A stretch of DNA of 11,484 nucleotides from IMG/VR virus record IMGVR_UViG_2778261514_000009, one strand, 5' to 3'. The notes beneath the pieces were generated by a model. It worked only from the letters and a program-made list of their open reading frames with translations, did not search any database and was not told where the DNA came from. The position numbers and the translations under genes are program-made. Source of the stretch: a virus. Its lineage: Duplodnaviria > Heunggongvirae > Uroviricota > Caudoviricetes. The first letter of the stretch is position 1. Every line of letters starts with the position of its first letter. Of the stretch, positions 1-11,484 are shown in pieces.

Positions 1-1218
1 ATGAACAAACTGAGCGATACCTTGCTAAGGAAACTTCATGGTAAGCCAGCGGAGAAAAACACGTTTTATAGTGATGGCGGAAACCTGAGCGTGAAATATT
101 TAACATCAGGGAAATTGACCTGGTATTTCACATACAGGGCCGGAACGGGAAGGGAGACACGACCCGAACGCATTAAGCTGGGAAGTTATCCTGATCTGAG
201 CCTGAAAGCAGCCAGGGAAAAAGCCGCACAGTGTCGCACATGGCTGGCTGAGGGGAAAAATCCACGTCATGAGATGAATTACACCGTACAGGAAGCGTTA
301 AAGCCCGTAACGGTTGGCGATGCGCTCACCTACTGGCTTGAGTATTACGTAAAGGAAAACCGCGTGGATTATATCGCCCTGAAAAGGCGACTTAATAATC
401 ACGTAATACAGCAGATTGGTGCTATGCCGCTGGATAAATGCGAGCTACGGCACTGGCTGGCCTGTTTTGACCAGGTGGCAAAGCGAACGCCTGTTACTGC
501 CGGATTCGTGCTACAGGCGTGCAAACAGGCGCTTAAGTTCTGCCGTAGGCGGCGCTATGCAATCAGCAACGTTCTGGACGATCTGAACGTGGCGGACGTT
601 GGGAAAAAACCGGATATAAGCGAACGTGTCTTAAGTAACAAAGAACTTGGCGAATTATTGCAGGCACTGGACAAAAAAATATTCTCCCCTTACTACGTCG
701 CGTTAATCCGCCTCCTGATTGTCTTCGGAGCCAGAACGGTAGAACTGAGGTTATCGGAGATCGGGGAGTGGGATTTTACGGAAATGCTATGGACCGTTCC
801 GAAGGAGCACAGCAAAACGAAGGTCGCAATATTCCGGCCCATACCGGAAGCGATCCTGCCGTTCGTCACGCAGCTGGTGGAGCAGAACAGGCACACGGGC
901 TTATTGCTGGGGGAAGTGAAACAGGAGGCCAGCGTATCGCAGTATGGAAGATTAGCGCACAGGAGGCTTAATCATCCTCACTGGTCACTACATGACATCC
1001 GGCGCACCTTTACAACGATGCTGAACGATTTAGGCGTGGATCCTCACGTCGTGGAGCAGCTTACAGGCCACCAGATGCCAGGAATGCAGCGAGTTTATAA
1101 TCATTCCCGTTATCTGGATGCTAAACGCAATGCGCTGGATATGTGGACGGAGCGGTTAGGGATACTGGCGGGAACACATGAAAACGTAACCACGCTACCA
1201 GTAGCCAGAAGAAAATAA
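1..1218 (+). CDS. int: Tyrosine recombinase, P4-type phage integrase (405 aa; ORF begins at window position 1)
   Basis: N-terminal arm-binding-like region (YSDGGNLSVKY...WYFTYR) and C-terminal catalytic region (HDIRRTF...LTGHQ...VYNHSRYLD) typical of P4-family integrases; followed by an AlpA gene as in P4-like and PICI elements. Confidence 0.9.
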   Translation: MNKLSDTLLRKLHGKPAEKNTFYSDGGNLSVKYLTSGKLTWYFTYRAGTGRETRPERIKLGSYPDLSLKAAREKAAQCRTWLAEGKNPRHEMNYTVQEALKPVTVGDALTYWLEYYVKENRVDYIALKRRLNNHVIQQIGAMPLDKCELRHWLACFDQVAKRTPVTAGFVLQACKQALKFCRRRRYAISNVLDDLNVADVGKKPDISERVLSNKELGELLQALDKKIFSPYYVALIRLLIVFGARTVELRLSEIGEWDFTEMLWTVPKEHSKTKVAIFRPIPEAILPFVTQLVEQNRHTGLLLGEVKQEASVSQYGRLAHRRLNHPHWSLHDIRRTFTTMLNDLGVDPHVVEQLTGHQMPGMQRVYNHSRYLDAKRNALDMWTERLGILAGTHENVTTLPVARRK

Positions 1219-1270
1219 TTTTTTTCGTGTTTTTTCAGTATGCACATACTGGATATGCGAACAGATACAA

Positions 1271-1320
1271 CGTGCAACAATGAGCAACAATGTGGAACAA
1301 CCACGAACAAGAGGCGAAAA
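1271..1320. repeat. Five tandem 10-bp repeats (consensus nnnGCAACAA) in the int-alpA intergenic region
   Basis: Read directly: cgtGCAACAA / tgaGCAACAA / tgtGGAACAA / ccacGAACAA / gagGCGAAAA at exact 10-bp phasing in an AT-rich spacer. Confidence 0.5.
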
Positions 1321-1582
1321 AGTGTACGGATTTATAAGTAGCTGATTTTTAATGCGTTACTGGTTTTTTATACACTAGCGAATCACTCTTTAAAGAGCGA
1401 GAAAAAAGGCATGAAACAATATTTTATGCCTTTGTATTAACATGAATTTAAAAGATTTTATTCTTACTGTTTCATTTTCTGTAAATCATACATCCTCAGT
1501 ATTTGCCATTCATCACTCTAGCGGGAACAATACGACACAATAAGACACCTGATGACTCTTTAAGAAACGAAAGGGGGCAATA

Positions 1583-1771
1583 GTGTTAAGCACTGATCGG
1601 TTTATACGTGAAAAAGAATGCGAAAAACTAACCGGCCTTAGCCGTACGTGTCGCTACCGCCTGGAAAAGGCCGGACAATTCCCATCACGTCGTAAACTTG
1701 GCGGTCGTTCCGTTGGCTGGTCTTTATCCGAGGTTCTGGCCTGGAAGGATAGCTGCAAGGCAGTTCATTAA
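1583..1771 (+). CDS. alpA: AlpA-family transcriptional regulator / excisionase-like HTH protein (62 aa, GTG start)
   Basis: Pattern TGLSRTCRYRLEKAGQFP...LGGRSVGWSLSEVLAW matches the AlpA (Phage_AlpA) family; SD AAGGGGG lies 6 nt upstream of GTG at 1583. Confidence 0.85.
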   Translation: MLSTDRFIREKECEKLTGLSRTCRYRLEKAGQFPSRRKLGGRSVGWSLSEVLAWKDSCKAVH

Positions 1772-2040
1772 TCACGCTGGCGGCACGCAGCCGCCACACA
1801 TCAATCATCTGAACACAGAGCTATAACCATGAAGATTGAATATACGCCAGAACGTAGGCGGGGATTCGTTCGCCCTGGTGAAACTGAAAAACAACAAAAT
1901 TGGGGTTTTTCAGGCATAACAAAAAGCGCCCAGTTACCTGAGCGCCTTTGTGAACGATTAACCTGCTGCGAAAAAATTGGATCAGTGCAGGGGAATTATA
2001 TCAACTGTGTGAAGAAGCGCCACTATTGCCGGATAACAGG

Positions 2041-2069
2041 CAAAGAAAAGGCCACCAGTCACGGTGGCC
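2041..2069 (-). terminator. Rho-independent terminator for the minus-strand two-gene unit
   Basis: On the minus strand: GGCCACC-gtgact-GGTGGCC followed by TTTTCTTTG, about 80 bp past the stop at 2149. Confidence 0.45.
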
Positions 2070-2148
2070 CTGCGACACAAATTTCGCGTTATCCCCAACG
2101 CATGAGCATCGCCAACAATGCCACATTTGCGGCTGGTGGGCAATGCTA

Positions 2149-2322
2149 TCAGTCTGGTTCAGTTCGTTGCCATACCTGCAATGAGCGCTTTTCCCTGTAC
2201 TCTTTAAGGAATTGCTCAAGGGCAAAAGCACATGGCGCGAATCTTTCTGATTCATGCTCTATCTTTCTGCGCCGTCTTTTCCGTGCCGGTGATAATGTTT
2301 TGGTCAATTCTTTATCGGTCAT
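2149..2322 (-). CDS. Small highly basic hypothetical protein (57 aa from ATG at 2322; alternative start 2337)
   Basis: ORF track 2149..2337(-); internal ATG has AGGA 8 nt upstream; contains RKRRRRK basic tract; lies 57 bp downstream of the RHH gene and upstream of the terminator. Confidence 0.35.
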   Translation of the reverse strand: MTDKELTKTLSPARKRRRRKIEHESERFAPCAFALEQFLKEYREKRSLQVWQRTEPD

Positions 2323-2379
2323 TGTGTTGTCCTGCATAGCAATGCGCCGTAATACCTCACACCACGGCGCTGATAGTGA

Positions 2380-2559
2380 TTATTCTGATTCTTTGGCCTT
2401 GCGGCGCTGGCGGCGTTTGATCTCGCCTTCAAGTGCCGAAACGATAAATTGCCCTGTACTTTCGCCATCTTCCTTTAAATTTTCTACAGCATCAGCTATT
2501 GCGTGTGGTACTCGAGCCTCAAGCTTTTTGGATTTTGCATTAACTGCTTTTGTTGCCAT
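2380..2559 (-). CDS. Ribbon-helix-helix (CopG/Arc-like) DNA-binding protein, 59 aa
   Basis: Internal ATG of track ORF 2380..2700(-) with SD GAGGAAA 6 nt upstream; sequence KKLEARVPHAIADAVENLKEDGESTGQFIVSALEGEIKRR fits the strand-helix-helix pattern; faces a divergent promoter/operator region. Confidence 0.5.
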   Translation of the reverse strand: MATKAVNAKSKKLEARVPHAIADAVENLKEDGESTGQFIVSALEGEIKRRQRRKAKESE

Positions 2560-2580
2560 ATCTGATTTCCTCGTTATTAG

Positions 2581-2662
2581 GTGGCTGACAGTATACACAC
2601 AAGAAAACGGAAAAACACTATTGACGTGGCTGACACCCGTTACTAATATAGTGGCTGACACC
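2581..2662. promoter_or_regulatory. Divergent promoter/operator region: sigma70-like TTGACG-17-TAATAT (2621-2649, + direction) overlapped by three direct repeats of GTGGCTGACA
   Basis: Repeats at 2581-2590, 2626-2635 and 2651-2660; the second overlaps the -35/spacer and the third sits at the predicted start site; located between the minus-strand RHH gene and the plus-strand operon. Confidence 0.45.
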
Positions 2663-2753
2663 TTTGTCAAGGTAATCGATGAAAAGACAAAGCCCCGCAA
2701 GTGTCGTTACCACTCGCAGGGCTTCTAACCAACAACGTAAACTAGGAGCCGTT

Positions 2754-2954
2754 ATGGTTGCTGTAAATCATATACCACACCTTGTACACACACAAACGGC
2801 CTTTGTGTGGCGTTTTCTGGCACTGAGTGCCGGAGAATCTCAAATCATCCACGTAACCGCCTGGACGGAACGCGAAGCGCGTAGCCGTTGCCCGTCCGGT
2901 TGTGTTGCTGTATTCGCCGCCCGTATTCGTCAGGAGGTGTGCCATGTGCAATAA
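2754..2954 (+). CDS. Hypothetical small protein (66 aa), first gene of the replication-module operon; possibly Icd-like
   Basis: Internal ATG of track ORF 2679..2954 with SD AGGAG 6 nt upstream; the Icd-like resemblance is from memory only and unverified. Confidence 0.45.
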   Translation: MVAVNHIPHLVHTQTAFVWRFLALSAGESQIIHVTAWTEREARSRCPSGCVAVFAARIRQEVCHVQ

Positions 2955-3183
2955 AACCACACCGGACGCAGCCGCCGCCGCGCTCACTACGCTAATGCAT
3001 GCGCTGATTGATATTTCTGTTATTGCTGACAGGGCGCATAAGCACGCCACCAATGAAACAGAATATGCCGGGGCTTTCGTTCCTCATTCGCTGGCGGTTA
3101 TGCAACTTAGTGCTGATATGGCGCTGAATGAGGCTAAAGCCATCCTGATTGCTGATTGTGAAAATGGGGGTGGTTATGCGTGA
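2944..3183 (+). CDS. Hypothetical small protein (79 aa)
   Basis: ATG at 2944 with SD AGGAGG 7 nt upstream; start overlaps the previous stop (translational coupling). Confidence 0.45.
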   Translation: MCNKTTPDAAAAALTTLMHALIDISVIADRAHKHATNETEYAGAFVPHSLAVMQLSADMALNEAKAILIADCENGGGYA

Positions 3184-3409
3184 TGATCGTTTTAATTCCC
3201 TGAAACAGGAATTTTCCGGCGTTCCTGATGATGCGGCTGATGCGCTTTCGTCAATGCCAGAGCTTATTAGAGCGGCTTTTTTCTTACTTTCCACGAGAGA
3301 ATATAAATCAACGGGGCTTGATGTACTGAATATCGCCGCCGATTATGCGGAATATGTGGCAGAGGCGCATTACAGAAGAAAATTTCCTGAGGATGTAAGC
3401 CATGCGTGA
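3176..3409 (+). CDS. Hypothetical small protein (77 aa)
   Basis: ATG at 3176 preceded by GGGGGTGG; overlaps the upstream stop at 3181-3183; the track's TTG start at 3149 is less likely. Confidence 0.45.
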   Translation: MRDDRFNSLKQEFSGVPDDAADALSSMPELIRAAFFLLSTREYKSTGLDVLNIAADYAEYVAEAHYRRKFPEDVSHA

Positions 3410-3635
3410 TATTTACCACGAAACAATAGACCGCGCATTTCTTGCACTTTCTCACAGTGAAAACATGCTGGAAATATTGCGCATATGGCTTGAAACACTT
3501 GGCGACAATGAACGCGACAAACAAAAATCAAGAATTGCCACGGCATTAATAACGCTTCTTGAGCCTGTAATAATGGAACTGCAAGAAATAGATCTATTGC
3601 ACGACAGATATAAAGAACAGCACACCGGAGAATAA
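3402..3635 (+). CDS. Hypothetical small protein (77 aa)
   Basis: ATG at 3402 with GAGGA upstream; overlaps the previous gene's 3' end by 8 nt. Confidence 0.5.
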   Translation: MRDIYHETIDRAFLALSHSENMLEILRIWLETLGDNERDKQKSRIATALITLLEPVIMELQEIDLLHDRYKEQHTGE

Positions 3636-3640
3636 AAATA

Positions 3641-3940
3641 ATGAAACTTAAATATTCTGGCTTAACTGCCAGTGGCAACACTCACCCTAAATTTACGCGC
3701 GGTGATATTTACCGCGACCAGTACGGCGGCACGGTAATGATTAAGGGCGTGGAAGAACGGCGCGTAACCTACCGCCGTGAAGGCTACGAATATGACTGCG
3801 TGATGCCTGTTTATCAGTTCCGGCGTGATTTTTCTCTGGTACAGGCAGCGCCCCGCAGTAAACCAACCAGCAGGGAGAAAGCACGCGCCAATATTCAGGA
3901 AATAAAAAAGATACTTAACGTATTCAGGGGTAAAAAATGA
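3641..3940 (+). CDS. Hypothetical protein (99 aa) immediately upstream of and overlapping the primase gene
   Basis: ATG at 3641 with GGAG upstream; its stop overlaps the primase start (ATGA at 3937-3940). Confidence 0.5.
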   Translation: MKLKYSGLTASGNTHPKFTRGDIYRDQYGGTVMIKGVEERRVTYRREGYEYDCVMPVYQFRRDFSLVQAAPRSKPTSREKARANIQEIKKILNVFRGKK

Positions 3941-5691
3941 AACTGGCACCGAACGTAAAACAGCAGTCACGCGGCATAAAACACAAAGAAACAGAAGTCA
4001 TTATTTTTGCGGGTAGTGATGCCTGGTCACACGCGAAACAATGGCAGGAACATGATGCGCGTATGGCCGGAGATAATGAGCCTCCTGTGTGGCTTGGGGA
4101 GCAGCAGCTATCCGAACTGGATAATCTGCAAATTGTGCCGGAAGGCCGAAAATCAGCACGCATATACAGGGCCGGATATCTTGCGCCAGTAATGATAAAG
4201 GCGATTGGCCAGAAGCTGGCGGCGGCAGGCGTACAGGATGCAAATTTTTACCCTGATGGTATGCACGGTCAGAAGGTGGAGAACTGGCGCGAATATCTGG
4301 CCCGTGAGCGCCAGAATCTTTCTGATGGTCTGGTCATTGAGCTTCCGGTAAAGCAAAAGGCGCAACTTTCGCAGATGGCGGACAGTGAGCGCGCGCAGCT
4401 GCTTGCCGATCGCTTTGATGGCGTTTGCGTACATCCTGAAAGTGAAATCGTTCACGTATGGCGCGGCGGGGTATGGTGTCCGGTCAGCACAATGGAACTT
4501 AGCCGCGAAATGGTGGCGATCTATTCAGAGCACAGGGCCACTTTCAGCAAGCGCGTAATCAATAACGCCGTGGAAGCGTTAAAAGTTATTGCCGAACCAA
4601 TGGGCGAGCCGTCCGGCGATTTGCTGCCGTTCGCCAATGGTGCGCTTGACCTGAAAACGGGGGAATTTTCCCCGCACACGCCGGAGAACTGGATCACCAC
4701 GCACAACGGCATTGAGTACACGCCACCAGCACCAGGGGAGAACATCCGCGATAACGCGCCAAACTTTCATAAATGGCTTGAGCACGCAGCCGGAAAAGAC
4801 CCGCGCAAGATGATGCGTATATGTGCCGCGCTGTACATGATTATGGCGAACCGGTACGACTGGCAGATGTTTATTGAGGCCACCGGAGATGGCGGGAGCG
4901 GTAAAAGTACATTCACGCACATAGCCAGCCTTCTGGCAGGGAAACAGAACACGGTAAGCGCTGAAATGACGTCGCTTGATGATGCTGGTGGACGTGCGCA
5001 GGTTGTCGGGAGTCGTCTTATCGTCCTGGCTGACCAGCCGAAATATACAGGCGAAGGAACGGGCATCAAGAAAATCACGGGCGGTGACCCCGTGGAAATT
5101 AACCCGAAATACGAAAAGCGTTTCACGGCTGTAATCAGGGCGGTGGTGCTGGCGACCAACAATAACCCGATGATATTCACCGAACGGGCCGGAGGTGTGG
5201 CACGTCGTCGCGTGATTTTCCGTTTCGACAATATCGTCAGTGAGGCCGACAAAGACAGGGAGCTACCGGAAAAGATCGCGGCTGAAATCCCTGTCATTAT
5301 CCGCCGATTGCTGGCGAACTTTACCGACCCTGAGAAGGCACGGGCTTTACTACTGGAACAGCGTGACGGTGATGAAGCTCTGGCAATAAAGCAACAGACG
5401 GATCCGGTTATTGAGTTTTGCCAGTTCCTGAATTTTCTGGAGGAAGCACGCGGCCTGATGATGGGCGGCGGTGGCGATTCAGTGAAGTACACGACCAGAA
5501 ACAGCCTTTACCGCGTCTATCTGGCGTTTATGGCGTACGCAGGCAGGAGCAAACCGCTAAACGTAAATGACTTTGGCAAGGCTATGAAGCCAGCCGCGAA
5601 AGTTTACGGACATGAATATATTACGCGGAAAGTTAAGGGAGTAACGCAGACTAACGCAATAACAACAGACGAGTGCGACGCGTTTTTATAA
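3937..5691 (+). CDS. pri: Replication initiation primase/helicase (D5_N plus SF3-type P-loop NTPase; P4-family primase C-terminal region), 584 aa
   Basis: Walker A GDGGSGKST, the downstream hydrophobic strand with acidic residue (LIVLADQP) and the characteristic ...VEINPKYEKRFTAVIRAVVLATNNNP...RRRVIFRF block; followed directly by an iteron region, as in PICI pri-rep/ori modules. Confidence 0.88.
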   Translation: MKLAPNVKQQSRGIKHKETEVIIFAGSDAWSHAKQWQEHDARMAGDNEPPVWLGEQQLSELDNLQIVPEGRKSARIYRAGYLAPVMIKAIGQKLAAAGVQDANFYPDGMHGQKVENWREYLARERQNLSDGLVIELPVKQKAQLSQMADSERAQLLADRFDGVCVHPESEIVHVWRGGVWCPVSTMELSREMVAIYSEHRATFSKRVINNAVEALKVIAEPMGEPSGDLLPFANGALDLKTGEFSPHTPENWITTHNGIEYTPPAPGENIRDNAPNFHKWLEHAAGKDPRKMMRICAALYMIMANRYDWQMFIEATGDGGSGKSTFTHIASLLAGKQNTVSAEMTSLDDAGGRAQVVGSRLIVLADQPKYTGEGTGIKKITGGDPVEINPKYEKRFTAVIRAVVLATNNNPMIFTERAGGVARRRVIFRFDNIVSEADKDRELPEKIAAEIPVIIRRLLANFTDPEKARALLLEQRDGDEALAIKQQTDPVIEFCQFLNFLEEARGLMMGGGGDSVKYTTRNSLYRVYLAFMAYAGRSKPLNVNDFGKAMKPAAKVYGHEYITRKVKGVTQTNAITTDECDAFL

Positions 5692-5699
5692 TTTTTTGT

Positions 5700-5935
5700 A
5701 ATTGCTGTCTACCCTGTCTACCTGAGTAAAGAAAAATACATTTAATTCAGTGCATTAAGTTAGGTAGATAGCCTTTTTTTACTGTCTACCCACTATCTAC
5801 CCTCTCTACCTGATTTTACCTGAATCAGACAGGGAGGTAGACACGGGGTAGATAGTGGATAAAAGCACTCTACCCCGCTGAAAGCCGTGCCATTACTGGC
5901 ATGAGGGCCACTAAGGTAGATAAGGTAGACAAGGG
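5700..5935. repeat. Putative replication origin: about 11 iterons of GGTAGA(C/T)A in two inverted clusters around an AT-rich spacer
   Basis: Reverse-orientation copies (..GTCTACC..) at 5707, 5716, 5784, 5796, 5804, 5869; forward copies GGTAGATA/GGTAGACA at 5763, 5836, 5847, 5915, 5924; AT-rich stretch 5724-5760; sits immediately 3' of the primase gene. Confidence 0.6.
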
Positions 5936-5979
5936 GAGGCACAACTCAAAACTTTTTAAACGAGGGGGTAAAAATAAAT

Positions 5980-6258
5980 ATGCACACTTCAGGGAAATTT
6001 AATAAATCACTCAAAAAACGCAGAGACAGAACAGAACCGAAATATCGCGCGTTAGACATGACAGAGCACGCTTTAAAGGTGGCAATCAGAACGATAGACC
6101 GCCACGCGGGGGAAGGATACGCGAAAGCACATCCCGACCTGATAAGCGCATTCATGACCACGACGGCGGCAAATTTTGCCACGCTGACAGAGCGGGAGAT
6201 TGCCGAAGCGGAACAGGTAACAACAATCAACGTTAAAACCGGAGAGGTGGAATCATGA
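5980..6258 (+). CDS. Hypothetical protein (92 aa)
   Basis: ATG at 5980 with GAGGGGG upstream; stop overlaps the SSB start (ATGA at 6255); no family recognised. Confidence 0.45.
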   Translation: MHTSGKFNKSLKKRRDRTEPKYRALDMTEHALKVAIRTIDRHAGEGYAKAHPDLISAFMTTTAANFATLTEREIAEAEQVTTINVKTGEVES

Positions 6259-6665
6259 CAGCACAGATAGCCGCTTACGGGCGGCTGGTGGACGACCCGC
6301 AGGTAAAACAGACCAGCAAGGGCACACCGATGACGCTGGCGCGTATGGCGGTCCCCCTTCCGTGCAGCCAGGCAGATGACGGAACGGCGACGATGTGGTT
6401 ATCCGTCCTGGCATTTGGCAGACAGGCCGAAGCACTGGAAAGGCACCGCAAGGGTGAACTCCTGAGCGTGGCGGGTAACATGCAGATCAGCCAGTGGACT
6501 GGGCAGAACGGAGAAACGCGGCAGGGTTATCAGGTTATTGCAGACAGCGTAATCAGTGCCCGTGCGGCACGTCCTGGCGGGAACAGACGCAAAACCACAG
6601 GCACACAGGGTAATCAGCCACCAGCGGGAGGCGATGACCCTTACGGTGATGATATTCCGTTCTGA
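6255..6665 (+). CDS. ssb: Single-stranded DNA-binding protein (SSB homologue, 136 aa)
   Basis: OB-fold-like N-terminus, Gly/Pro/Gln-rich linker and C-terminal tail ...DDPYGDDIPF matching the conserved SSB acidic tip (E. coli SSB ends ...DFDDDIPF); SD GGAGAGGTGG. Confidence 0.85.
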   Translation: MTAQIAAYGRLVDDPQVKQTSKGTPMTLARMAVPLPCSQADDGTATMWLSVLAFGRQAEALERHRKGELLSVAGNMQISQWTGQNGETRQGYQVIADSVISARAARPGGNRRKTTGTQGNQPPAGGDDPYGDDIPF

Positions 6666-6675
6666 GGGGGTGAGG

Positions 6676-6948
6676 ATGGTACATGACCGCATAGCGGAGG
6701 AACTCGAGGCAAAAGGCTTTTACCGGAGGGCGGCGGCACGATGGGGTGAAGTCATGCAACTGGTGGAGACAGACAAGGAACGGCATCACATCACGATGCG
6801 ACGGCTGGAATGTTCAAGGAAGGCACAGAGGGCACCGGAGCCGCCGGATAATTTCGGAGACCTGAAAAAGGCAGTCGATCGCACTTATGCCGAAATGGGT
6901 ATAGATGGTGCTGGTGATGAAATATGGCGCAATTACCAGGACAGCTAA
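6676..6948 (+). CDS. PerC-family transcriptional activator-like protein (90 aa)
   Basis: N-terminal block MVHDRIAEELEAKGFYRRAAARWGEVM resembles the PerC/Pch family signature as I recall it; SD GAGGGGG 5 nt upstream of ATG 6676; the track's longer 6556 start overlaps ssb out of frame. Confidence 0.55.
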   Translation: MVHDRIAEELEAKGFYRRAAARWGEVMQLVETDKERHHITMRRLECSRKAQRAPEPPDNFGDLKKAVDRTYAEMGIDGAGDEIWRNYQDS

Positions 6949-6954
6949 TCAAAC

Positions 6955-6978
6955 AGCCGGAGAAATACGGCTTTTTTT
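6955..6978 (+). terminator. Rho-independent terminator after the PerC-like gene
   Basis: AGCCG-gagaaata-CGGCT followed by a T7 run, 7 nt after the stop codon. Confidence 0.5.
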
Positions 6979-7074
6979 GCACCAGTTGAAACGGTATGGC
7001 GCATTACCGGGTTTTCGTCACGGTCAGGCATAGTTACTATCTGAAACAAACAGACACAACAGAGGAAAAAAACA

Positions 7075-7299
7075 ATGCCGATGAAATTTGATGAGATATT
7101 AAAACAGCGTGATAAATACCATGCTGACAACATGGAGACGATGAGCATCAATGATTACCGCGCATTCCTGGAGACGGGCGCACTGATTGAAAAGGATCAG
7201 CATGGTTTTGTGAGATGTGCTCTATCCGGTGAAATGCTGGCGGTAAATCCTGAACAGATAGATGCATTGATAGAATTTCTGAAAGAGATCAGAGACTGA
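7075..7299 (+). CDS. Hypothetical protein (74 aa)
   Basis: Strong SD (GAGGAAAAAAACA-ATG); flanked by terminators on both sides, so it looks like a monocistronic unit; no family recognised. Confidence 0.5.
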   Translation: MPMKFDEILKQRDKYHADNMETMSINDYRAFLETGALIEKDQHGFVRCALSGEMLAVNPEQIDALIEFLKEIRD

Positions 7300-7318
7300 G
7301 CCAGCACACAGCACACAT

Positions 7319-7389
7319 AGCCGGAGCAATCCGGCTTTTTTGCGCCCAAAAAAAGCCCGATAAGGTCAGAGGGTTCTTATCGGGCTTTT
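7319..7389 (+). terminator. Tandem terminators: AGCCGGA-gcaa-TCCGGCT plus T-run, then a 12-bp-stem hairpin flanked by A-run and T-run (bidirectional)
   Basis: Read directly at 7319-7341 and 7347-7389. Confidence 0.6.
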
Positions 7390-7439
7390 GCATATGAGGT
7401 TTTTGGATGCACTGGCGTTCGTGATCGGGATAATCATTT

Positions 7440-7517
7440 CATAATTTGCAACATAACTCAATATCATTGCATAAAATGCAATTCTGATTATAATCAGGAC
7501 TGGATAAACATCCAGTT
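7440..7517 (+). promoter_or_regulatory. Capsid-operon promoter region with three palindromes and a TTGCAT-16-TATAAT promoter
   Basis: TTGCATaaaATGCAA (7467-7481), perfect 14-bp palindrome CTGATTATAATCAG (7484-7497) overlapping the -10 TATAAT (7489-7494), and ACTGGATaaacATCCAGT (7500-7517). Confidence 0.4.
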
Positions 7518-7550
7518 ATGATTTTTTTAGTCGAAGAGGAATTTCTTACT

Positions 7551-7757
7551 ATGGCTGAAGAGAAAAAAGGCGGTGTTTCGGTGTACATAAGCCCCGAAAT
7601 CGTGGAGGTGCTCAAGCAGCGCCACAAAAAAAACTATGAAGCTGGCGTTGCGGCTGGACTGGATCCGCTGATGACGCCGGAGCCGTCGATAGGTTCACTT
7701 GTGCGATCTTATTTACTTGCGGCGCTTGGGATGCACAAAAATTATGGGGGCGAATAA
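7551..7757 (+). CDS. Hypothetical small protein (68 aa) coupled to the major capsid gene
   Basis: ATG 7551 with GAGGAA upstream (the track's 7518 start lacks an SD); its stop overlaps the capsid gene start (TAATG). Confidence 0.5.
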   Translation: MAEEKKGGVSVYISPEIVEVLKQRHKKNYEAGVAAGLDPLMTPEPSIGSLVRSYLLAALGMHKNYGGE

Positions 7758-8812
7758 TGGCAGTCAAAGCAATAGCACTTAACACACACCAGCTTTTCGC
7801 GTACCTGAATCGCGAGGATATTGCGGAATTTAAATTTAGTCCGCTGTTTACCGCGCTGTTTTTCCCGAACGTGGCGACATTCAACACGCAGGACATCATG
7901 TTAGATAACCTGGATATTGAAGAAGTCACTATGTCGGCGTTTTGTTCGCCTATGGTTGGCAGCCAGGTTCAGCGCGATAAAGGGTACGAAACCAGCATTA
8001 TCCGCCCTGGCTACATGAAGCCAAAACACGAAATCGATCCATTAAAAACAATAATGCGCATGGCTGGAGAAGATCCGGCACAGCTTAACGATCCTACCTA
8101 CCGCCGTATGCGCCTGATTACTGGCAACATGCGCCGCCAGATAAATGCCATTAAGGCACGCGTTGAATGGCTGGCGGTGAATGCGGTAACGACCGGAAAA
8201 AACATCATTGAGGGCGAAGGCATAGAACGCTATGAAATCGACTGGAAGATACCGGAAAAAAACATCATAGAGCAGGCCGACGGTAAAAAATGGTCTGAGC
8301 AGGATAAAGACATACACGACCCAATATATGACATTGAACTATACGCAGATCAGGCAGGTTGCCCCGCCAACGTCATGATTATGGGCGTTGATGTATGGCG
8401 CATGTTACGCAGCTTTAAAAAATTCCGTGAACTGTACGATCTCTCCCGTGGTTCAGAATCCGCCGCAGAGCTGGCATGTAAAAACCTGGGCGAAGTGGTG
8501 AGCTTTAAAGGCTATCTTGGTGATCTGGCCCTTATCGTCTATTCCGGCAAATACACTGACAGCGACGGCACAGAAAAATATTTCCTTGAGCCTGATTTGC
8601 TTGTCCTGGGCAACACCAACAATAAAGGGCTGGTGGCCTATGGTGCGATTATGGATCAGGACGCAGTAAGAACGGGGGCAACGCAAAACATGTACTACCC
8701 GAAAAACTGGATTGAGGACGGAGATCCGGCGATTGAGTACGTGCAGACGCACAGCGCACCGCAGCCGGTTCCGGCAGATATTCGCAAATTTGTTACTGTC
8801 AAAATTGCTTAA
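7757..8812 (+). CDS. Major capsid protein, lambda gpE family (351 aa)
   Basis: Alignable along its length with lambda gpE as recalled: FKFSPLF, PGYMKPKHEIDP, EDPAQLNDPTYRRMR, WSEQDKDIHDP..DIELYA, VSFKGYLGDLALIVYSGKY, LVLGNTNNKGLVAYGAIMD, YYPKNWIEDGDPAIEY..HSAP. Confidence 0.9.
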   Translation: MAVKAIALNTHQLFAYLNREDIAEFKFSPLFTALFFPNVATFNTQDIMLDNLDIEEVTMSAFCSPMVGSQVQRDKGYETSIIRPGYMKPKHEIDPLKTIMRMAGEDPAQLNDPTYRRMRLITGNMRRQINAIKARVEWLAVNAVTTGKNIIEGEGIERYEIDWKIPEKNIIEQADGKKWSEQDKDIHDPIYDIELYADQAGCPANVMIMGVDVWRMLRSFKKFRELYDLSRGSESAAELACKNLGEVVSFKGYLGDLALIVYSGKYTDSDGTEKYFLEPDLLVLGNTNNKGLVAYGAIMDQDAVRTGATQNMYYPKNWIEDGDPAIEYVQTHSAPQPVPADIRKFVTVKIA

Positions 8813-8823
8813 CGGGGGATTCT

Positions 8824-9159
8824 ATGGACACTCCATACATTGAGTTATTTGCAGGCAGTCAGCAGGTCGCCACGACGCTGGTACATTTTGCCGCTGATGC
8901 TGGCGTTATTCAGGAATTTACCCCGCTGATGCTGGCGGACAATGGCGAGTTTAAGCCGTGGGATGGTCAGGAATCTGGCAAGGCTGTTTATCTGACTTCG
9001 TATCCTGTGGACACGTCAAAGCAGAAATCAGCACAGTGTTACAAGACGGGGATATTCAATATTGCCGCCGTTAACTGGCCTGAGAGCGTCGACACCGATG
9101 CGAAAAAATGCGCCGCCTTTGCGGGTTCCGGCGTATCCGTTCAGCCGCTGGCCCGATAA
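8824..9159 (+). CDS. Head decoration protein, lambda gpD-like (111 aa)
   Basis: Core matches lambda gpD as recalled (TPLMLADNGEFKPWDG vs TPLMLDTSSRKLVAWDG; CYKTGIFNIAAVNWPE vs FYKSGTFRYEDVLWPE; KKCAAFAGSGVSV vs KKRTAFAGTAISIV); SD GGGGG. Confidence 0.75.
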   Translation: MDTPYIELFAGSQQVATTLVHFAADAGVIQEFTPLMLADNGEFKPWDGQESGKAVYLTSYPVDTSKQKSAQCYKTGIFNIAAVNWPESVDTDAKKCAAFAGSGVSVQPLAR

Positions 9160-9171
9160 GCAGGGGGAACG

Positions 9172-9585
9172 ATGGCAACGAATGAAAGCATCATGACGCT
9201 ACCGCTGGCGAGTAAATTTAAAGCCGAAGCGCGGGCAATGGCTGACAGAGGTTTATCAACCTATGAGGCCGTATATCAACTAAACAAACTGGAAGAGCAG
9301 GACAAGCCGCGCGCTGATGCGATTATGGCGCTTCATGAGCATAAAGACTATCAGCCGCTGTTACGTGCAATGGCAAACGTGCCATGTATTAGCGTCGATA
9401 ATGCTCGTGAAATCCTGAACATGACCATAGAGCAGGAGCGCCCAAAGGTTGCACCAGAGCTTACCGCAGCCTTTGAAAACTTTATGGACATGCACAGCCC
9501 GCAAGCCGTATCAGCTGGCATGGCATACGATGGCAGAAACCAGGGCGATGACGGCGACATCGATCGCATACTGAAAACCATCTGA
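9172..9585 (+). CDS. Hypothetical protein (137 aa), last gene of the capsid operon
   Basis: SD AGGGGGAA 4 nt upstream; followed by a terminator; no family recognised. Confidence 0.5.
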   Translation: MATNESIMTLPLASKFKAEARAMADRGLSTYEAVYQLNKLEEQDKPRADAIMALHEHKDYQPLLRAMANVPCISVDNAREILNMTIEQERPKVAPELTAAFENFMDMHSPQAVSAGMAYDGRNQGDDGDIDRILKTI

Positions 9586-9589
9586 GACA

Positions 9590-9614
9590 AGGCCGGAGAA
9601 ATCCGGCTTTTTTT
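9590..9614 (+). terminator. Rho-independent terminator (GCCGGA-gaaa-TCCGGC plus T7) abutting cosQ
   Basis: Read directly; same hairpin family as the terminators at 6955 and 7319. Confidence 0.6.
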
Positions 9615-9790
9615 ACGGGTCCTTTCCGGCATATGGACCCGTTACGGGGCGGCGACCTCGCGGTTTTTCGCTATTTATGAGCCTTTTCAGGGGGGGGGTG
9701 GTGGTTTTGTTGTTTGCTCTATCTTTATGAATGAAAAGGGAAAGATGCAAACAATACACCAACCTGAAGCAGTAATTAAGTTGGTGTATT
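9615..9790 (+). other. Lambda-type cos site (copy A): cosQ-like ACGGGTCCTTTCCGG, cosN with 12-nt cohesive end GGGCGGCGACCT (9647-9658), then a divergent cosB-like region
   Basis: ACGGGTCCTTTCCGG-N11-GTTACGGGGCGGCGACCTCGCGGTTTTTCGCTATTTATGA matches the phage lambda cos junction as recalled, with the same cosQ-cosN spacing; downstream sequence departs from lambda cosB and carries a G9 run and the inverted repeat ATACACCAAC...GTTGGTGTAT. Confidence 0.7.
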
Positions 9791-9791
9791 A

Positions 9792-10334
9792 ATGAAATCG
9801 CACCTGATGAACAAAAAAAACATGGCGAAAAGCTGCCGTGTAAGTGCGACAGCGTTCGACAAGTGGGGAGTGACTCCCGTTGAACGTAAAGGCCGTGAGG
9901 CGTTTTACGATGTTGCCAGCGTGATAGACAATAGGGTTAACAATGCAATTAGCCAGCTTACAAACGACAAAGGCGATATTGATGATGATGAACTCTTACG
10001 AGTCAGGATCAGATTACTGACAGCACAGGCGGAGGCGCAGGAACTTAAAAACGAGCGCGATCGCGGTGACGTGATTGATACTGAGTTTTGCCTGTACGCG
10101 CTTTCAAAGCTGGCGAGTCAGATTTCATCAATCATGGACAGCCTCCCGCTTACTATGCAAAGGAGCTTCCCACAGATTACCCACGCCATGCTGGATAGGC
10201 TTAAAAGGGAAGTGGTTAAAGCCTGTAATGCCAGTGCCAGAGTTGCCGACAACCTCCCACAGATACTGGCTGATTACTTGAAAGAAACAACCGGAAACGT
10301 ACCGGAAAAGTTGCTACAGAAGAAAGGCGAGTAA
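9792..10334 (+). CDS. terS: Terminase small subunit, lambda Nu1 family (180 aa; start possibly at 9807)
   Basis: C-terminal two-thirds aligns with lambda Nu1 as recalled (RLLTAQAEAQELKNERD / LTRAQADAQELKNARD; FCLYALSKLASQISSIMDSLPL / FCTFVLSRIAGEIASILDGLPL; LKREVVKACN / LKRDIIKAMN); N-terminus NKKN... parallels Nu1 MEVNKKQ... HTH region; lies directly downstream of cos as in lambda. Confidence 0.8.
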   Translation: MKSHLMNKKNMAKSCRVSATAFDKWGVTPVERKGREAFYDVASVIDNRVNNAISQLTNDKGDIDDDELLRVRIRLLTAQAEAQELKNERDRGDVIDTEFCLYALSKLASQISSIMDSLPLTMQRSFPQITHAMLDRLKREVVKACNASARVADNLPQILADYLKETTGNVPEKLLQKKGE

Positions 10335-10339
10335 CAGAC

Positions 10340-10556
10340 GCGCAATTATTGAACAAAACTGAGAAACGACATGAAAGCGTCATAAATCGCCATTTTAGAT
10401 GATTACCGTGTCGTTTCTTTTTATTGTGTATCTATTTAAAAACAAATAGTTATGTTCGAGAAGTACCGACATGCTTTTTCCAGAAAAATTTTCATAAACA
10501 GATAAAAACCGCGAGGTCGCCGCCCCGTAACGGGCCATAATTCCAGGAAGGACCCG
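10340..10556 (-). other. Second, inverted cos module (copy B): cosQ-like, cosN (GGGCGGCGACCT on minus strand at 10514-10525) and a lambda-like cosB with I1-like and R-like elements
   Basis: Reverse complement of 10500-10556 reads CGGGTCCTTCCTGGAATTATGGCCCGTTACGGGGCGGCGACCTCGCGGTTTTTATCTGTTTATGAAAATTTTTCTGG, close to copy A and to the lambda left end; further along, CGAACATAACTATTTGTTTTTAAATA resembles the lambda I1 region; inverted CGTTTCT elements at 10363-10372 and 10409-10418. Confidence 0.6.
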
Positions 10557-10589
10557 ACGACACCAGACTATCAGAGCGATGGGGGCACA

Positions 10590-10877
10590 ATGACAGAAGC
10601 CGAACTACTGGGATTAATCCGCCGCGTTACCGGAATCAGCCAGCAGCATGACGAACAGGCCACGCAGCCGGACAGCGTGACCGCCGAAAATTACGCGCGT
10701 GTGGTTGCTGAGGTGATGCGCCGTGATGGTATCCAGCTTAATGATGTGGATATGCGCAACATAGGATCCGCGTTCTTGAAATGCTGGCCTACAATCGCCG
10801 CGTGGCACTGTATCGGGAAACGGAGAAAATTACGTACCACTGGAAGAAGCCGGAGCGGTTACGGCGTTAACGAGTAG
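10590..10877 (+). CDS. Hypothetical protein (95 aa), weakly supported
   Basis: ORF with a G-rich SD-like sequence upstream; no family recognised; could be non-coding. Confidence 0.3.
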   Translation: MTEAELLGLIRRVTGISQQHDEQATQPDSVTAENYARVVAEVMRRDGIQLNDVDMRNIGSAFLKCWPTIAAWHCIGKRRKLRTTGRSRSGYGVNE

Positions 10878-10886
10878 CGACATACC

Positions 10887-10921
10887 GTGACGGAGAGTGA
10901 CAACCAGTGACACGCCGTGAC
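10887..10921. repeat. Four GTGAC motifs at exact 10-bp phasing; candidate arm-type recombinase or RDF binding sites near the island right end
   Basis: cGTGACggag aGTGACaacc aGTGACacgc cGTGACaaaa; followed by GGTCAT direct and inverted repeats (11013-11041) and a GGTGTAGTCA direct repeat (about 11240-11261). Confidence 0.35.
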
Positions 10922-11325
10922 AAAAGACGGTTTAACCGTTAATTAAAAATTGACGGGATTTTGTGCTTTCCGGACGACGTGACCAACGTCATTTTTTAGC
11001 GAAAAGTTCTGATTAAGGTCATTGTCTGAATGGTCATAATGACCACTCCTACAAAACAGGTAAAGCCCACCAGCCTGATTAACAGTTAACCGGAAAAAAA
11101 TCCGGTAGCCCCGTTATGGGGATCCCCATATCAACATTAACGCCCCTCATGAATTAGCGCGCTTCCCCCTGGAAAGATGACCCGCCTGTATATTTCTTGT
11201 GTCTATTTGTTCCACGTTGTTTCATACAGTGCACCGAACGGTGTAGTCACTGGTGTAGTCATTTTGCGATTTATGGCACTTTTTGTAGTGAAAATTATTT
11301 AATTAAATCAATGCGTTAAGTGAAA

Positions 11326-11472
11326 TTAGTTATATATAACAGCAATAAATAATGCGAGAATAAACGGCACGATGATCTCGGCGGCAAAACGGATACCGCA
11401 GAGAATAATGACCAGCATTCCCAACATAATGACGATTTTTAGGCCATTGAGCGTGATGATCGGCTTTGCCAT
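11326..11472 (-). pseudogene. Truncated 5' fragment of a host inner-membrane protein gene (N-terminus resembles TqsA/YdgG), ending in an island-derived stop; marks the probable right junction of the island
   Basis: Minus-strand translation from the window end: [52 protein letters not shown]; hydrophobic TM-like N-terminus matching my recollection of TqsA up to ...ALFIAV, then divergence and stop; flanking sequence is AT-rich and repeat-rich. Confidence 0.45.
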
Positions 11473-11484
11473 GCTTGTCCCCAT

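Follow-up and report, generated by a model that had tools for sequence, protein, structure and literature searches.

The DNA analysed here, an 11,484-nucleotide (nt) stretch of a virus (IMG/VR record IMGVR_UViG_2778261514_000009; 'the window' denotes this whole stretch), carries two lambda-type cos packaging sites in inverted orientation, one on each side of a gene for a small terminase subunit (terS). We call the upstream site copy A and the downstream site copy B. On balance we think it probable that the inverted pair provides two packaging start sites with different recognition specificity. The window pair is the published cos1/cos2 layout of the EcCICFT073 family of phage-inducible chromosomal islands (PICIs) in Escherichia coli; the arrangement is not new, having been reported in 2018. 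What is new here is the TerS-type variant of the family and a comparative result for the second cos; no new kind of system is involved.

Two exact cosQ-cosN units face each other around terS

The 12-nt cosN sequence GGGCGGCGACCT was found once on each strand of the window (Table 1). A 47-nt pattern comprising cosQ (GGGTCCT), 23 nt of spacing as in lambda, cosN and CGCGG was matched with 0 mismatches at 9617-9663 (+) and 10509-10555 (-), and no match was seen in any of 200 shuffles of the window. The paired cosQ-cosN anatomy is exact and non-random. This pattern search returned precisely the two cosN positions and the opposed orientation that had been recorded in a first-pass annotation, made from the letters of the window alone. 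That annotation had also described a shared, near-identical cosQ-cosN sequence resembling the lambda cos junction, and alignment confirmed it: both copies match the cos sites of lambda and of many lambdoid coliphages. Copy A is ~84% identical to lambdoid cos over ~80 nt, with the match ending ~45 bp past the cosN start. Copy B shows 75% identity to lambda across 125 nt, running into the cosB region; with the cos of phage PhiR5_1 the identity is 83% across 150 nt, and the match extends well inside cosB. The similarity to lambda cos is thus real at both copies.

The two opposed sites lie about 870 bp apart. A repeat finder showed them to be part of an inverted repeat with arms of 72 nt that are 82% complementary and share a 31-nt identical core. 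The layout is not an assembly artefact, because it recurs, at 80% query coverage or more, in 487 of 5,426 complete E. coli genomes, as well as in 52 of 80 IMG/VR contigs.

The two sites carry different cosB regions

Both copies show a lambdoid type of cosB anatomy, with an R3 element about 50-65 bp from the cosN start, an inverted R2 and an R1; a segment aligning with the I1 element was found in copy B only. In copy A, the R3-like element is in register with R3 of phage N15 (GAGGTTGTTGTTT, bp 48-59/60; N15 position taken from PMC4669245 and PMC9026076) and matches it at 9 of 12 positions. The R cores of copy A read GGTGGTGG and GGTTGGTGT, the latter in both the R2-like and R1-like elements, against GGTTGTTGT in N15. 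Judged by these alignments, copy A has an N15/Monarch-type cosB with three R elements, rather than the unrelated cosB described in the first pass. The G9 tract and inverted repeat noted there do exist (9691-9699; 9752-9764/9780-9790). The repeat corresponds to the R2-like and R1-like elements, and the G9 is no separate feature: it reads as a point variant of a (GGT)n run in the R3-like region, and is polymorphic in related islands, most of which have GGGGGGTGGTGGTGG or GGGTGGTGGTGGTGG at this place. The specificity of copy A and its TerS is probably related to that of N15, yet distinct.

In copy B, the putative R3, I1-like, R2 and R1 elements keep the order, orientation and register of lambda, in agreement with the lambda-like I1 and R-like elements reported for this copy in the first pass. 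By alignment copy B is a complete lambdoid cos, closest to that of PhiR5_1. It ends about 25 bp from the terS stop codon, and has the appearance of a whole phage cos, extending up to the would-be start of Nu1 (the lambda small terminase), placed backwards against the 3' end of terS.

The gene between the sites encodes a full-length mosaic small terminase

A Nu1-like terS between the two sites had been proposed from the letters, and it holds up: the product matches Pfam family PF07471 (E = 1.2e-23; 84 bits versus a cutoff of 30) and has an N-terminal winged-helix domain and a predicted C-terminal region for binding the large terminase subunit (TerL). Over its length it is 45-46% identical to N15 gp1 (46% over 90% of length), 44% to PhiR5_1 Nu1, 39% to lambda Nu1 and 19% to RppA, the packaging-redirection protein of EcCICFT073. 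The closest relative differs between parts of the protein. Residues 1-55 are nearest to N15 gp1 (62% identity), the two having AFDKWGV in common in the recognition-helix region and differing at about three positions upstream of it (RVSAT vs GISVQ). Residues 56-110 (64%) and 111-180 (55%) are nearest to PhiR5_1 Nu1. By this comparison TerS is a mosaic of an N15-like DNA-binding domain and PhiR5_1-like middle and C-terminal parts.

The C-terminal half of TerS aligns with the invariant positions of five phage TerS proteins. In small terminases this half is proposed to hold the TerL-binding domain, and Rpp proteins are without it (Murialdo & Feiss, PMC9026076). The gene is not an rpp: with 180 residues, 19% identity to RppA, a retained C-terminal half and no match to Rpp, that assignment was ruled out, and tblastn of the window with RppA and a second Rpp gave only hits with E > 2. 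Searching the PDB sequences with TerS gave chance-level matches only (E >= 0.07). A lambda hybrid is viable with lambda TerL when its TerS is a chimera that joins an N-terminal part from N15 to a C-terminal part from lambda, and lambda- and 21-specific terminases fail to package DNA with the N15 cosB (PMC4669245). Because TerS is full length with its C-terminal half kept, it is predicted to act independently of the helper TerS: the island would supply a complete small terminase that recruits the helper TerL directly, in place of an adaptor that depends on the helper TerS.

The last residues of TerS (window about 10310-10334) read ...EKLLQKKGE in two-cos islands and ...EKLQ(Q/P)NKDK in most single-cos islands. 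The difference places one boundary of the copy B insertion inside the last terS codons.

Table 1. Features of the window, with coordinates on the 11,484-nt stretch
Feature	Position	Strand	Description
Whole island	1-11484	+	EcCICFT073-family PICI in tqsA; from genome match, Pfam and collinearity
Terminator-like hairpin	9591-9615	+	GGCCGGAGAAATCCGGC followed by T7; directly before copy A cosQ; conserved in EcCICFT073
Left arm of inverted repeat	9616-9687	+	cosQ, I2 region, cosN and about 30 bp beyond; nearly identical in EcCICFT073 cos1
Copy A cosQ	9617-9623	+	GGGTCCT; 23 nt before cosN, as in lambda
Copy A cosN	9647-9658	+	GGGCGGCGACCT; 12/12 identical to lambda
Variable cassette	9689-10478	.	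copy A cosB, terS and copy B cosB between the conserved inverted arms
Copy A proximal cosB	9691-9715	+	G9 running into GGTGGTGGTTTT (R3-like), then GTTGTTTG
Copy A R3-like	9697-9708	+	GGTGGTGGTTTT; cos bp 51-62; from alignment to N15 left end
Copy A R2-like	9752-9764	-	CAATACACCAACC, reverse complement GGTTGGTGTATTG; inverted relative to R3-like and R1-like; resembles N15 R core GGTTGTTGT
Copy A R1-like	9780-9790	+	GTTGGTGTATT; ends one base before the terS start codon
terS	9792-10334	+	180 aa, full-length Nu1 family; 12-aa C-terminal extension; RefSeq 'terminase small subunit'
Copy B R1	10359-10373	-	CATGTCGTTTCTCAG; forms inverted repeat I2 with R2
Copy B R2	10406-10420	-	AAAGAAACGACACGG; inverted relative to R1 and R3, as in lambda
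Copy B I1-aligned segment	10430-10454	-	CATAACTATTTGTTTTTAAATAGAT; putative integration host factor (IHF) site; from alignment to lambda and PhiR5_1 only
Copy B R3	10458-10473	-	CATGTCGGTACTTCTC; cos bp 53-68, in register with lambda R3
Right arm of inverted repeat	10485-10556	-	nearly identical to EcCICFT073 cos2
Copy B cosN	10514-10525	-	GGGCGGCGACCT; 12/12 identical to lambda
Copy B cosQ	10549-10555	-	GGGTCCT; 23 nt before cosN
Small open reading frame	10590-10877	+	just outside copy B; conserved across islands

The pair corresponds to cos1 and cos2 of EcCICFT073

We located EcCICFT073 in the CFT073 sequence at about 22931-33700 of locus L006. Its cosN sequences lie at 32559 (+ strand) and 33298 (- strand) of the same locus, flanking rppA, and are exactly the sites shown as cos.1 and cos.2 in Supplementary Fig. 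S5 of Fillol-Salom 2018, where cos.2 is printed as the reverse complement. The premise in the first-pass annotation that a single cos is to be expected is therefore wrong for this family. The DNA of the window is 84-94% identical to EcCICFT073, with the same gene order (c1499, capsid; c1500, decoration; and c1501 included), everywhere except at about 9689-10478, the sole part of the island that does not align. In a third island, 19AR0646, the same flanks that surround the terS cassette of the window enclose an rpp cassette.

The two islands thus share a pair of inverted cosQ-cosN units around a packaging-specificity gene, with nearly identical arms and an island-specific upstream cosB directly before the gene. 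They differ in all three parts of the cassette. The gene of EcCICFT073 encodes an Rpp, a class of proteins of 139-154 aa without the proposed TerL-binding end, whereas that of the window is a 180-aa TerS with the C-terminal half. The upstream cosB is of the Rpp type (ACCACCACC) in EcCICFT073 and of the N15/Monarch type in the window, and the downstream cosB is PhiR12-like in EcCICFT073 and PhiR5_1/lambda-like in the window. Copy A does not carry the Rpp-type motif, which is ACCACCACC at bp 55-63; at bp 51-62 it reads GGTGGTGGTTTT, and clustering places its cosB apart from the Rpp type. We observed that GGTGGTGGT in copy A (9697-9705) is the exact reverse complement of ACCACCACC (bp 55-63 of cos1 in L006), the conserved core proposed as the Rpp-binding R3-PICI. 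The two lie at nearly equal distances from cosN; as the sequence is a three-base repeat, this may be a coincidence.

Published work on EcCICFT073 (Fillol-Salom et al. 2018 ISME J, PMC6092414; 2019 Mol Cell, PMC6739421) describes both sites as having lambda-like cosQ and cosN with differing cosB. Each site, when cloned, permits plasmid transfer by lambda and phi80. Transfer of the island itself is cut by deletion of cos1, raised by deletion of cos2 and abolished by deletion of both. RppA pairs with the helper TerS and boosts cos1 only, through its cosB. In this homologue both sites function and only cos1 depends on the island protein; the transfer assays are also indirect evidence that terminase nicks such sites to leave 12-nt cohesive ends.

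The same papers found no phage cosB in either EcCICFT073 site. In our comparison, cos2 and the cos of phages PhiR12_1 to PhiR12_5 share 93.3% identity across 179 bp; in PhiR12_1 the matching cos sits between Rz and Nu1. The published statement therefore holds only against lambda and phi80. A lambdoid prophage of CFT073 (L091 5534, about 1,348,533), a few kb from EcCICFT073, also has a cosB of the cos2 type, and its TerS is identical to that of PhiR12_1. The published CFT073 helper is prophage 4, which is of the 21 type.

Upstream cosB follows the gene and downstream cosB is exchanged as a cassette

We compared 83 loci, namely 80 IMG/VR loci collected with the 137-aa protein encoded just upstream of copy A as the query, the window, CFT073 and 19AR0646. 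The inverted pair was found in 55 of them, with cosN identical at 12 of 12 positions in nearly all. Clustering of the cosB regions gave the seven types in Table 2. Types T0a and T1 are confined to the upstream position, beside TerS or Rpp respectively, and the upstream cosB always matches its gene. At the downstream position, all 55 inverted copies have one of five phage-like types (T0b, T2, T3, T4 or T5). The best phage match of the T3 cosB was 72%, to a partial phage record. For T0a and T0b, no record in the phage collection matched beyond about bp 45-55.

Table 2. Types of cosB in the surveyed loci
Type	Character	Position
T0a	TerS-linked; that of window copy A	upstream only
T1	Rpp-linked (ACCACCACC)	upstream only
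T0b	N15/Monarch-like; GGTTGTTGTTTAAT identical to N15 (R3 core)	downstream or gene-less pairs
T2	PhiR12-like; 93% to PhiR12_1 cos	downstream or gene-less pairs
T3	R core CAGATCC; weakly phage-like	downstream
T4	PhiR5_1-like; that of window copy B	downstream
T5	21-like; clusters with CFT073 prophage 4 and an O157 prophage	downstream

Loci with T0a and TerS were joined to a downstream T3 in 12 cases, T4 in 10 and T5 in two, and had no downstream cos in 14, about 10 of which are not explained by contig ends. Loci with T1 and Rpp had a downstream T2 (12 loci) or T0b (nine loci). A further 10 loci have no gene in the cassette and combine an upstream T0b or T2 with a downstream T2 or T0b, four in one orientation and six in the other. 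All 59 gene-bearing cassettes (38 TerS and 21 Rpp) have a single orientation. Islands with 100% identical terS and cosN/cosQ arms can differ solely in the ~150-bp copy B cosB, which is then 54-66% identical; on these alignments the copy B cosB is exchanged between islands as a precise ~150-bp cassette.

Three further arrangements were noted among these loci. In L031 (about 4650-4700), a remnant of copy B, from which cosB and part of cosN have been deleted, adjoins terS: distal cosN and then cosQ come immediately after the stop codon. The gene-less islands (L018-L024, L029, L030, L075 and L078) have T0b and T2 cosB regions back to back, in both orientations, with 524-625 bp between the cosN sites. 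Lastly, L061, L062, L064, L082-L084 and L086 (about 3911-4330) have a single upstream cos with a different, GGGCGGGAGCGG-like cohesive end and a T2-like cosB; the next short open reading frame has an N-terminus like that of the PhiR12-type TerS (VATQTEVARHL...).

Two probable packaging start sites and the alternatives

The reading that we favour, two start sites that differ in recognition, would work as follows. The N15-type domain of the island TerS would read the copy A cosB, and its lambdoid C-terminal half would recruit the helper large terminase (gpA/TerL) to nick cosN, with packaging running rightward. Copy B would be read by an unmodified terminase from a helper whose specificity matches it (the PhiR5_1 lineage), and packaging from there would run leftward. 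The directions are opposite because the sites are inverted, so that the bidirectional packaging raised in the first-pass annotation follows from the geometry. On a concatemer, each route would end where its own site next recurs in the same orientation, and either route would therefore yield whole-island multimers, about 4 x 11.4 kb per lambda-size head. The conserved inverted cosQ-cosN arms would serve as recombination boundaries for exchange of the specificity cassette and, in gene-less islands, for its inversion. The first-pass suggestion of two entry points with different specificity fits the anatomy, the survey and the EcCICFT073 experiments; which protein acts at which site we infer.

Several points weigh against this interpretation. 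The assignment of proteins to sites, the recruitment of TerL and a benefit from copy B in the window island are all inferred rather than observed. In CFT073, only deletion of prophage 4 abolished transfer (the effect of deleting the cos2-type prophage is not established here). The rise in EcCICFT073 transfer on cos2 deletion was seen with lambda; a second cos can thus be costly with a non-matching helper. The nearest known phage cosB to that of copy B is only about 83% identical, and megablast searching gave no sign of a near-identical cosB in a resident prophage: it placed the copy B cosB in 101 genomes, at a median of one place per genome and a maximum of two. TerS, including its C-terminus, was not found to co-vary with the copy B type, the same allele occurring with T3 or T4. 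In about ten islands terS is accompanied by copy A alone, and in one other copy B is truncated; since single-cos islands exist, copy B is dispensable and has been gained and lost over time. Finally, the IMG/VR loci behind the survey counts are largely derived from E. coli and are not independent samples.

A more specific form of the two-site reading is one that we hold only tentatively. The downstream inverted cos may be a plug-in module for matching helpers, standing beside a private site (copy A with TerS or Rpp), its ~150-bp cosB having been swapped repeatedly to the lambdoid specificity in circulation (lambda/PhiR5_1, PhiR12, 21, N15/Monarch or T3). If so, the cassette would also be invertible by terminase and ligase, since cuts in the two cosN sites would leave the same end on either side of the fragment.

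Could copy B instead have arisen incidentally, when helper phages recombined with islands at the shared cosQ-cosN, and be a hitch-hiking phage cos with no selected role that is tolerated or mildly harmful? The effect of cos2 deletion on transfer of EcCICFT073 by lambda would be expected on this account, as would single-cos islands and the copy B remnant, and the boundaries of the cosB swaps do lie in phage-shared sequence, in cosN/cosQ and in the segment upstream of the Nu1 start. We nevertheless regard it as unlikely, given that copy B is intact in 55 of the 83 loci, is always inverted and nearly always has a perfect cosN, that the phage-like cosB types examined keep full sets of R elements, and that cos2 is functional in published assays. 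The exact replacement of ~150 bp of cosB between otherwise identical islands also looks like the turnover of a feature in use. A mainly interfering role, in which a phage-type cos on a high-copy island soaks up the helper terminase and packaging from copy B is secondary, has little to recommend it in our view. PICIs of the EcCICFT073 family do act on TerS to prevent packaging of the helper, copy B is built like a full phage initiation site and, according to the literature, the island amplifies on induction. Yet the published interference in this family maps to Rpp and not to the cos sites, no data tie cos2 to a lower phage titre, and a decoy would not need to be inverted. Such a role also overlaps with that of a second start site, since terminase caught at copy B still packages island DNA.

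It is very improbable, lastly, that the inverted pair is an invertible or bidirectional device, either a switch for the cassette or a means of packaging outward into the chromosome, as in lateral transduction. A switch would be in keeping with the two orientations of the gene-less T0b/T2 cassette, and the geometry implies that a cut in each cosN would free a piece whose identical ends could be re-ligated either way; the uniform orientation of the TerS and Rpp cassettes speaks against it. Outward packaging would suit the position of both sites, which lie some 1-1.8 kb in from the island's right end, but it can terminate only at another cos of like orientation, and 6 kb of flanking chromosome showed none; nor is there evidence of in situ packaging for the EcCICFT073 family.

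Likeness to other packaging systems

The window shares with lambda the cosQ, its 23-nt spacing and the 12-nt cosN, the placing of copy A directly upstream of terS as cos stands before Nu1, and the arrangement of R3, I1-like, R2 and R1 in copy B. It differs in having two opposed sites and other R cores, in the absence of terL, and in that copy B adjoins the 3' end of terS, read backwards, and not a terS start. With N15 it has in common the TerS DNA-binding domain and the register of R3, and differs in its lambda-type cosN (N15 has its own type), its R cores and the few recognition-helix positions given above. The Monarch prophage group, compared here by its published description only, also has three R elements with R2 inverted and N15-like cores (Feiss et al. 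2015, PMC4669245).

Among satellites of other hosts, the cos-type Staphylococcus aureus pathogenicity islands (SaPIs) SaPIbov5 and SaPIbov4 likewise carry a helper cos site for packaging by the helper terminase, and SaPIbov4 has been cited as also having two putative cos sites. They differ in host, phage lineage and terminase family, which is HNH-dependent, and do not pair an island TerS with a private cosB. The pac-type SaPIs follow the same logic in redirecting packaging, with a satellite small terminase, the helper large terminase and a satellite-specific site; these use headful pac packaging, unrelated proteins and a separate inhibitor (Ppi).

The island and its other genes

The window matches E. 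coli STEC17-183 at 100% (NZ_CP075652.1, 5015989-5027472). There it forms an 11.4-kb insertion that splits tqsA, with fragments of the gene at both sides. In order, its genes are int, alpA, an icd-like gene, a DUF4222 gene, a D5/P4-type primase gene, ssb, perC, a gpE-like capsid gene, a gpD-like decoration gene, a c1501-like gene (137 aa), terS and a small open reading frame. Pfam detected the integrase, AlpA, DUF4222, D5_N, SSB, PerC, Phage_cap_E, HDPD and Phage_Nu1 families. A tyrosine integrase at one end (1-1218; PF00589 and PF13356) accompanies insertion at a specific site; an AlpA regulator (1583-1771; Phage_AlpA, E = 5e-17) is followed by a pri-rep module (3937-5691) with D5_N, DUF5906 and Pox_D5 primase domains; and the size lies within the about 10-15 kb of cos PICIs. 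Lysis, tail, portal and large-terminase genes were absent from the window annotation and from its list of open reading frames, and tblastn with a lambdoid TerL found no homologue in the window. By gene content and collinearity the window is a cos PICI of the EcCICFT073 family, EcCICFT073 being the type element of the Gram-negative cos PICIs.

The gpE-like and gpD-like genes (7757-9159) are homologues of c1499 and c1500, deletion of which in EcCICFT073 changed neither transfer nor interference (2018 paper, PMC6092414). At 6676-6948 there is a gene for a PerC-family transcriptional activator (Pfam E = 4e-43). The PerC family is tied to virulence regulation in enteropathogenic and enterohaemorrhagic E. 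coli. According to the RefSeq annotation, the small open reading frame beyond copy B is a frameshifted pseudogene; in single-cos relatives an open reading frame of the same type directly follows terS, starting about 12 bp past the stop codon. The hairpin before copy A has a fold energy of -15.3 kcal/mol (z = -3.9 versus shuffles). No sigma-70 promoter for terS was found on the + strand of 9100-11000. Terminator-like signals placed at both cosN sites by the promoter and terminator scan turned out to be the cosN sequence itself, and a direct repeat (D2) and two inverted repeats (I3 and I4) returned by the repeat finder were treated as chance or weak homology.

Significance for the EcCICFT073 family

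Within E. coli, PICIs of the EcCICFT073 family carry genes for virulence and defence from strain to strain with high frequency, and how the packaging site is recognised determines which phages can mobilise them. Packaging from cos1 by way of Rpp has been described well, and the reason for a second cos was explicitly left open (PMC6739421). A cos2 that is a swappable phage-like cos, occurring in several specificity groups, is a testable answer to that question. The matched helpers that we propose are PhiR5_1 for the window island and PhiR12_1 for EcCICFT073; if copy B does match helpers in this way, it would widen the helper range. The TerS-type island, unlike those with Rpp, is predicted to bypass the helper TerS altogether.

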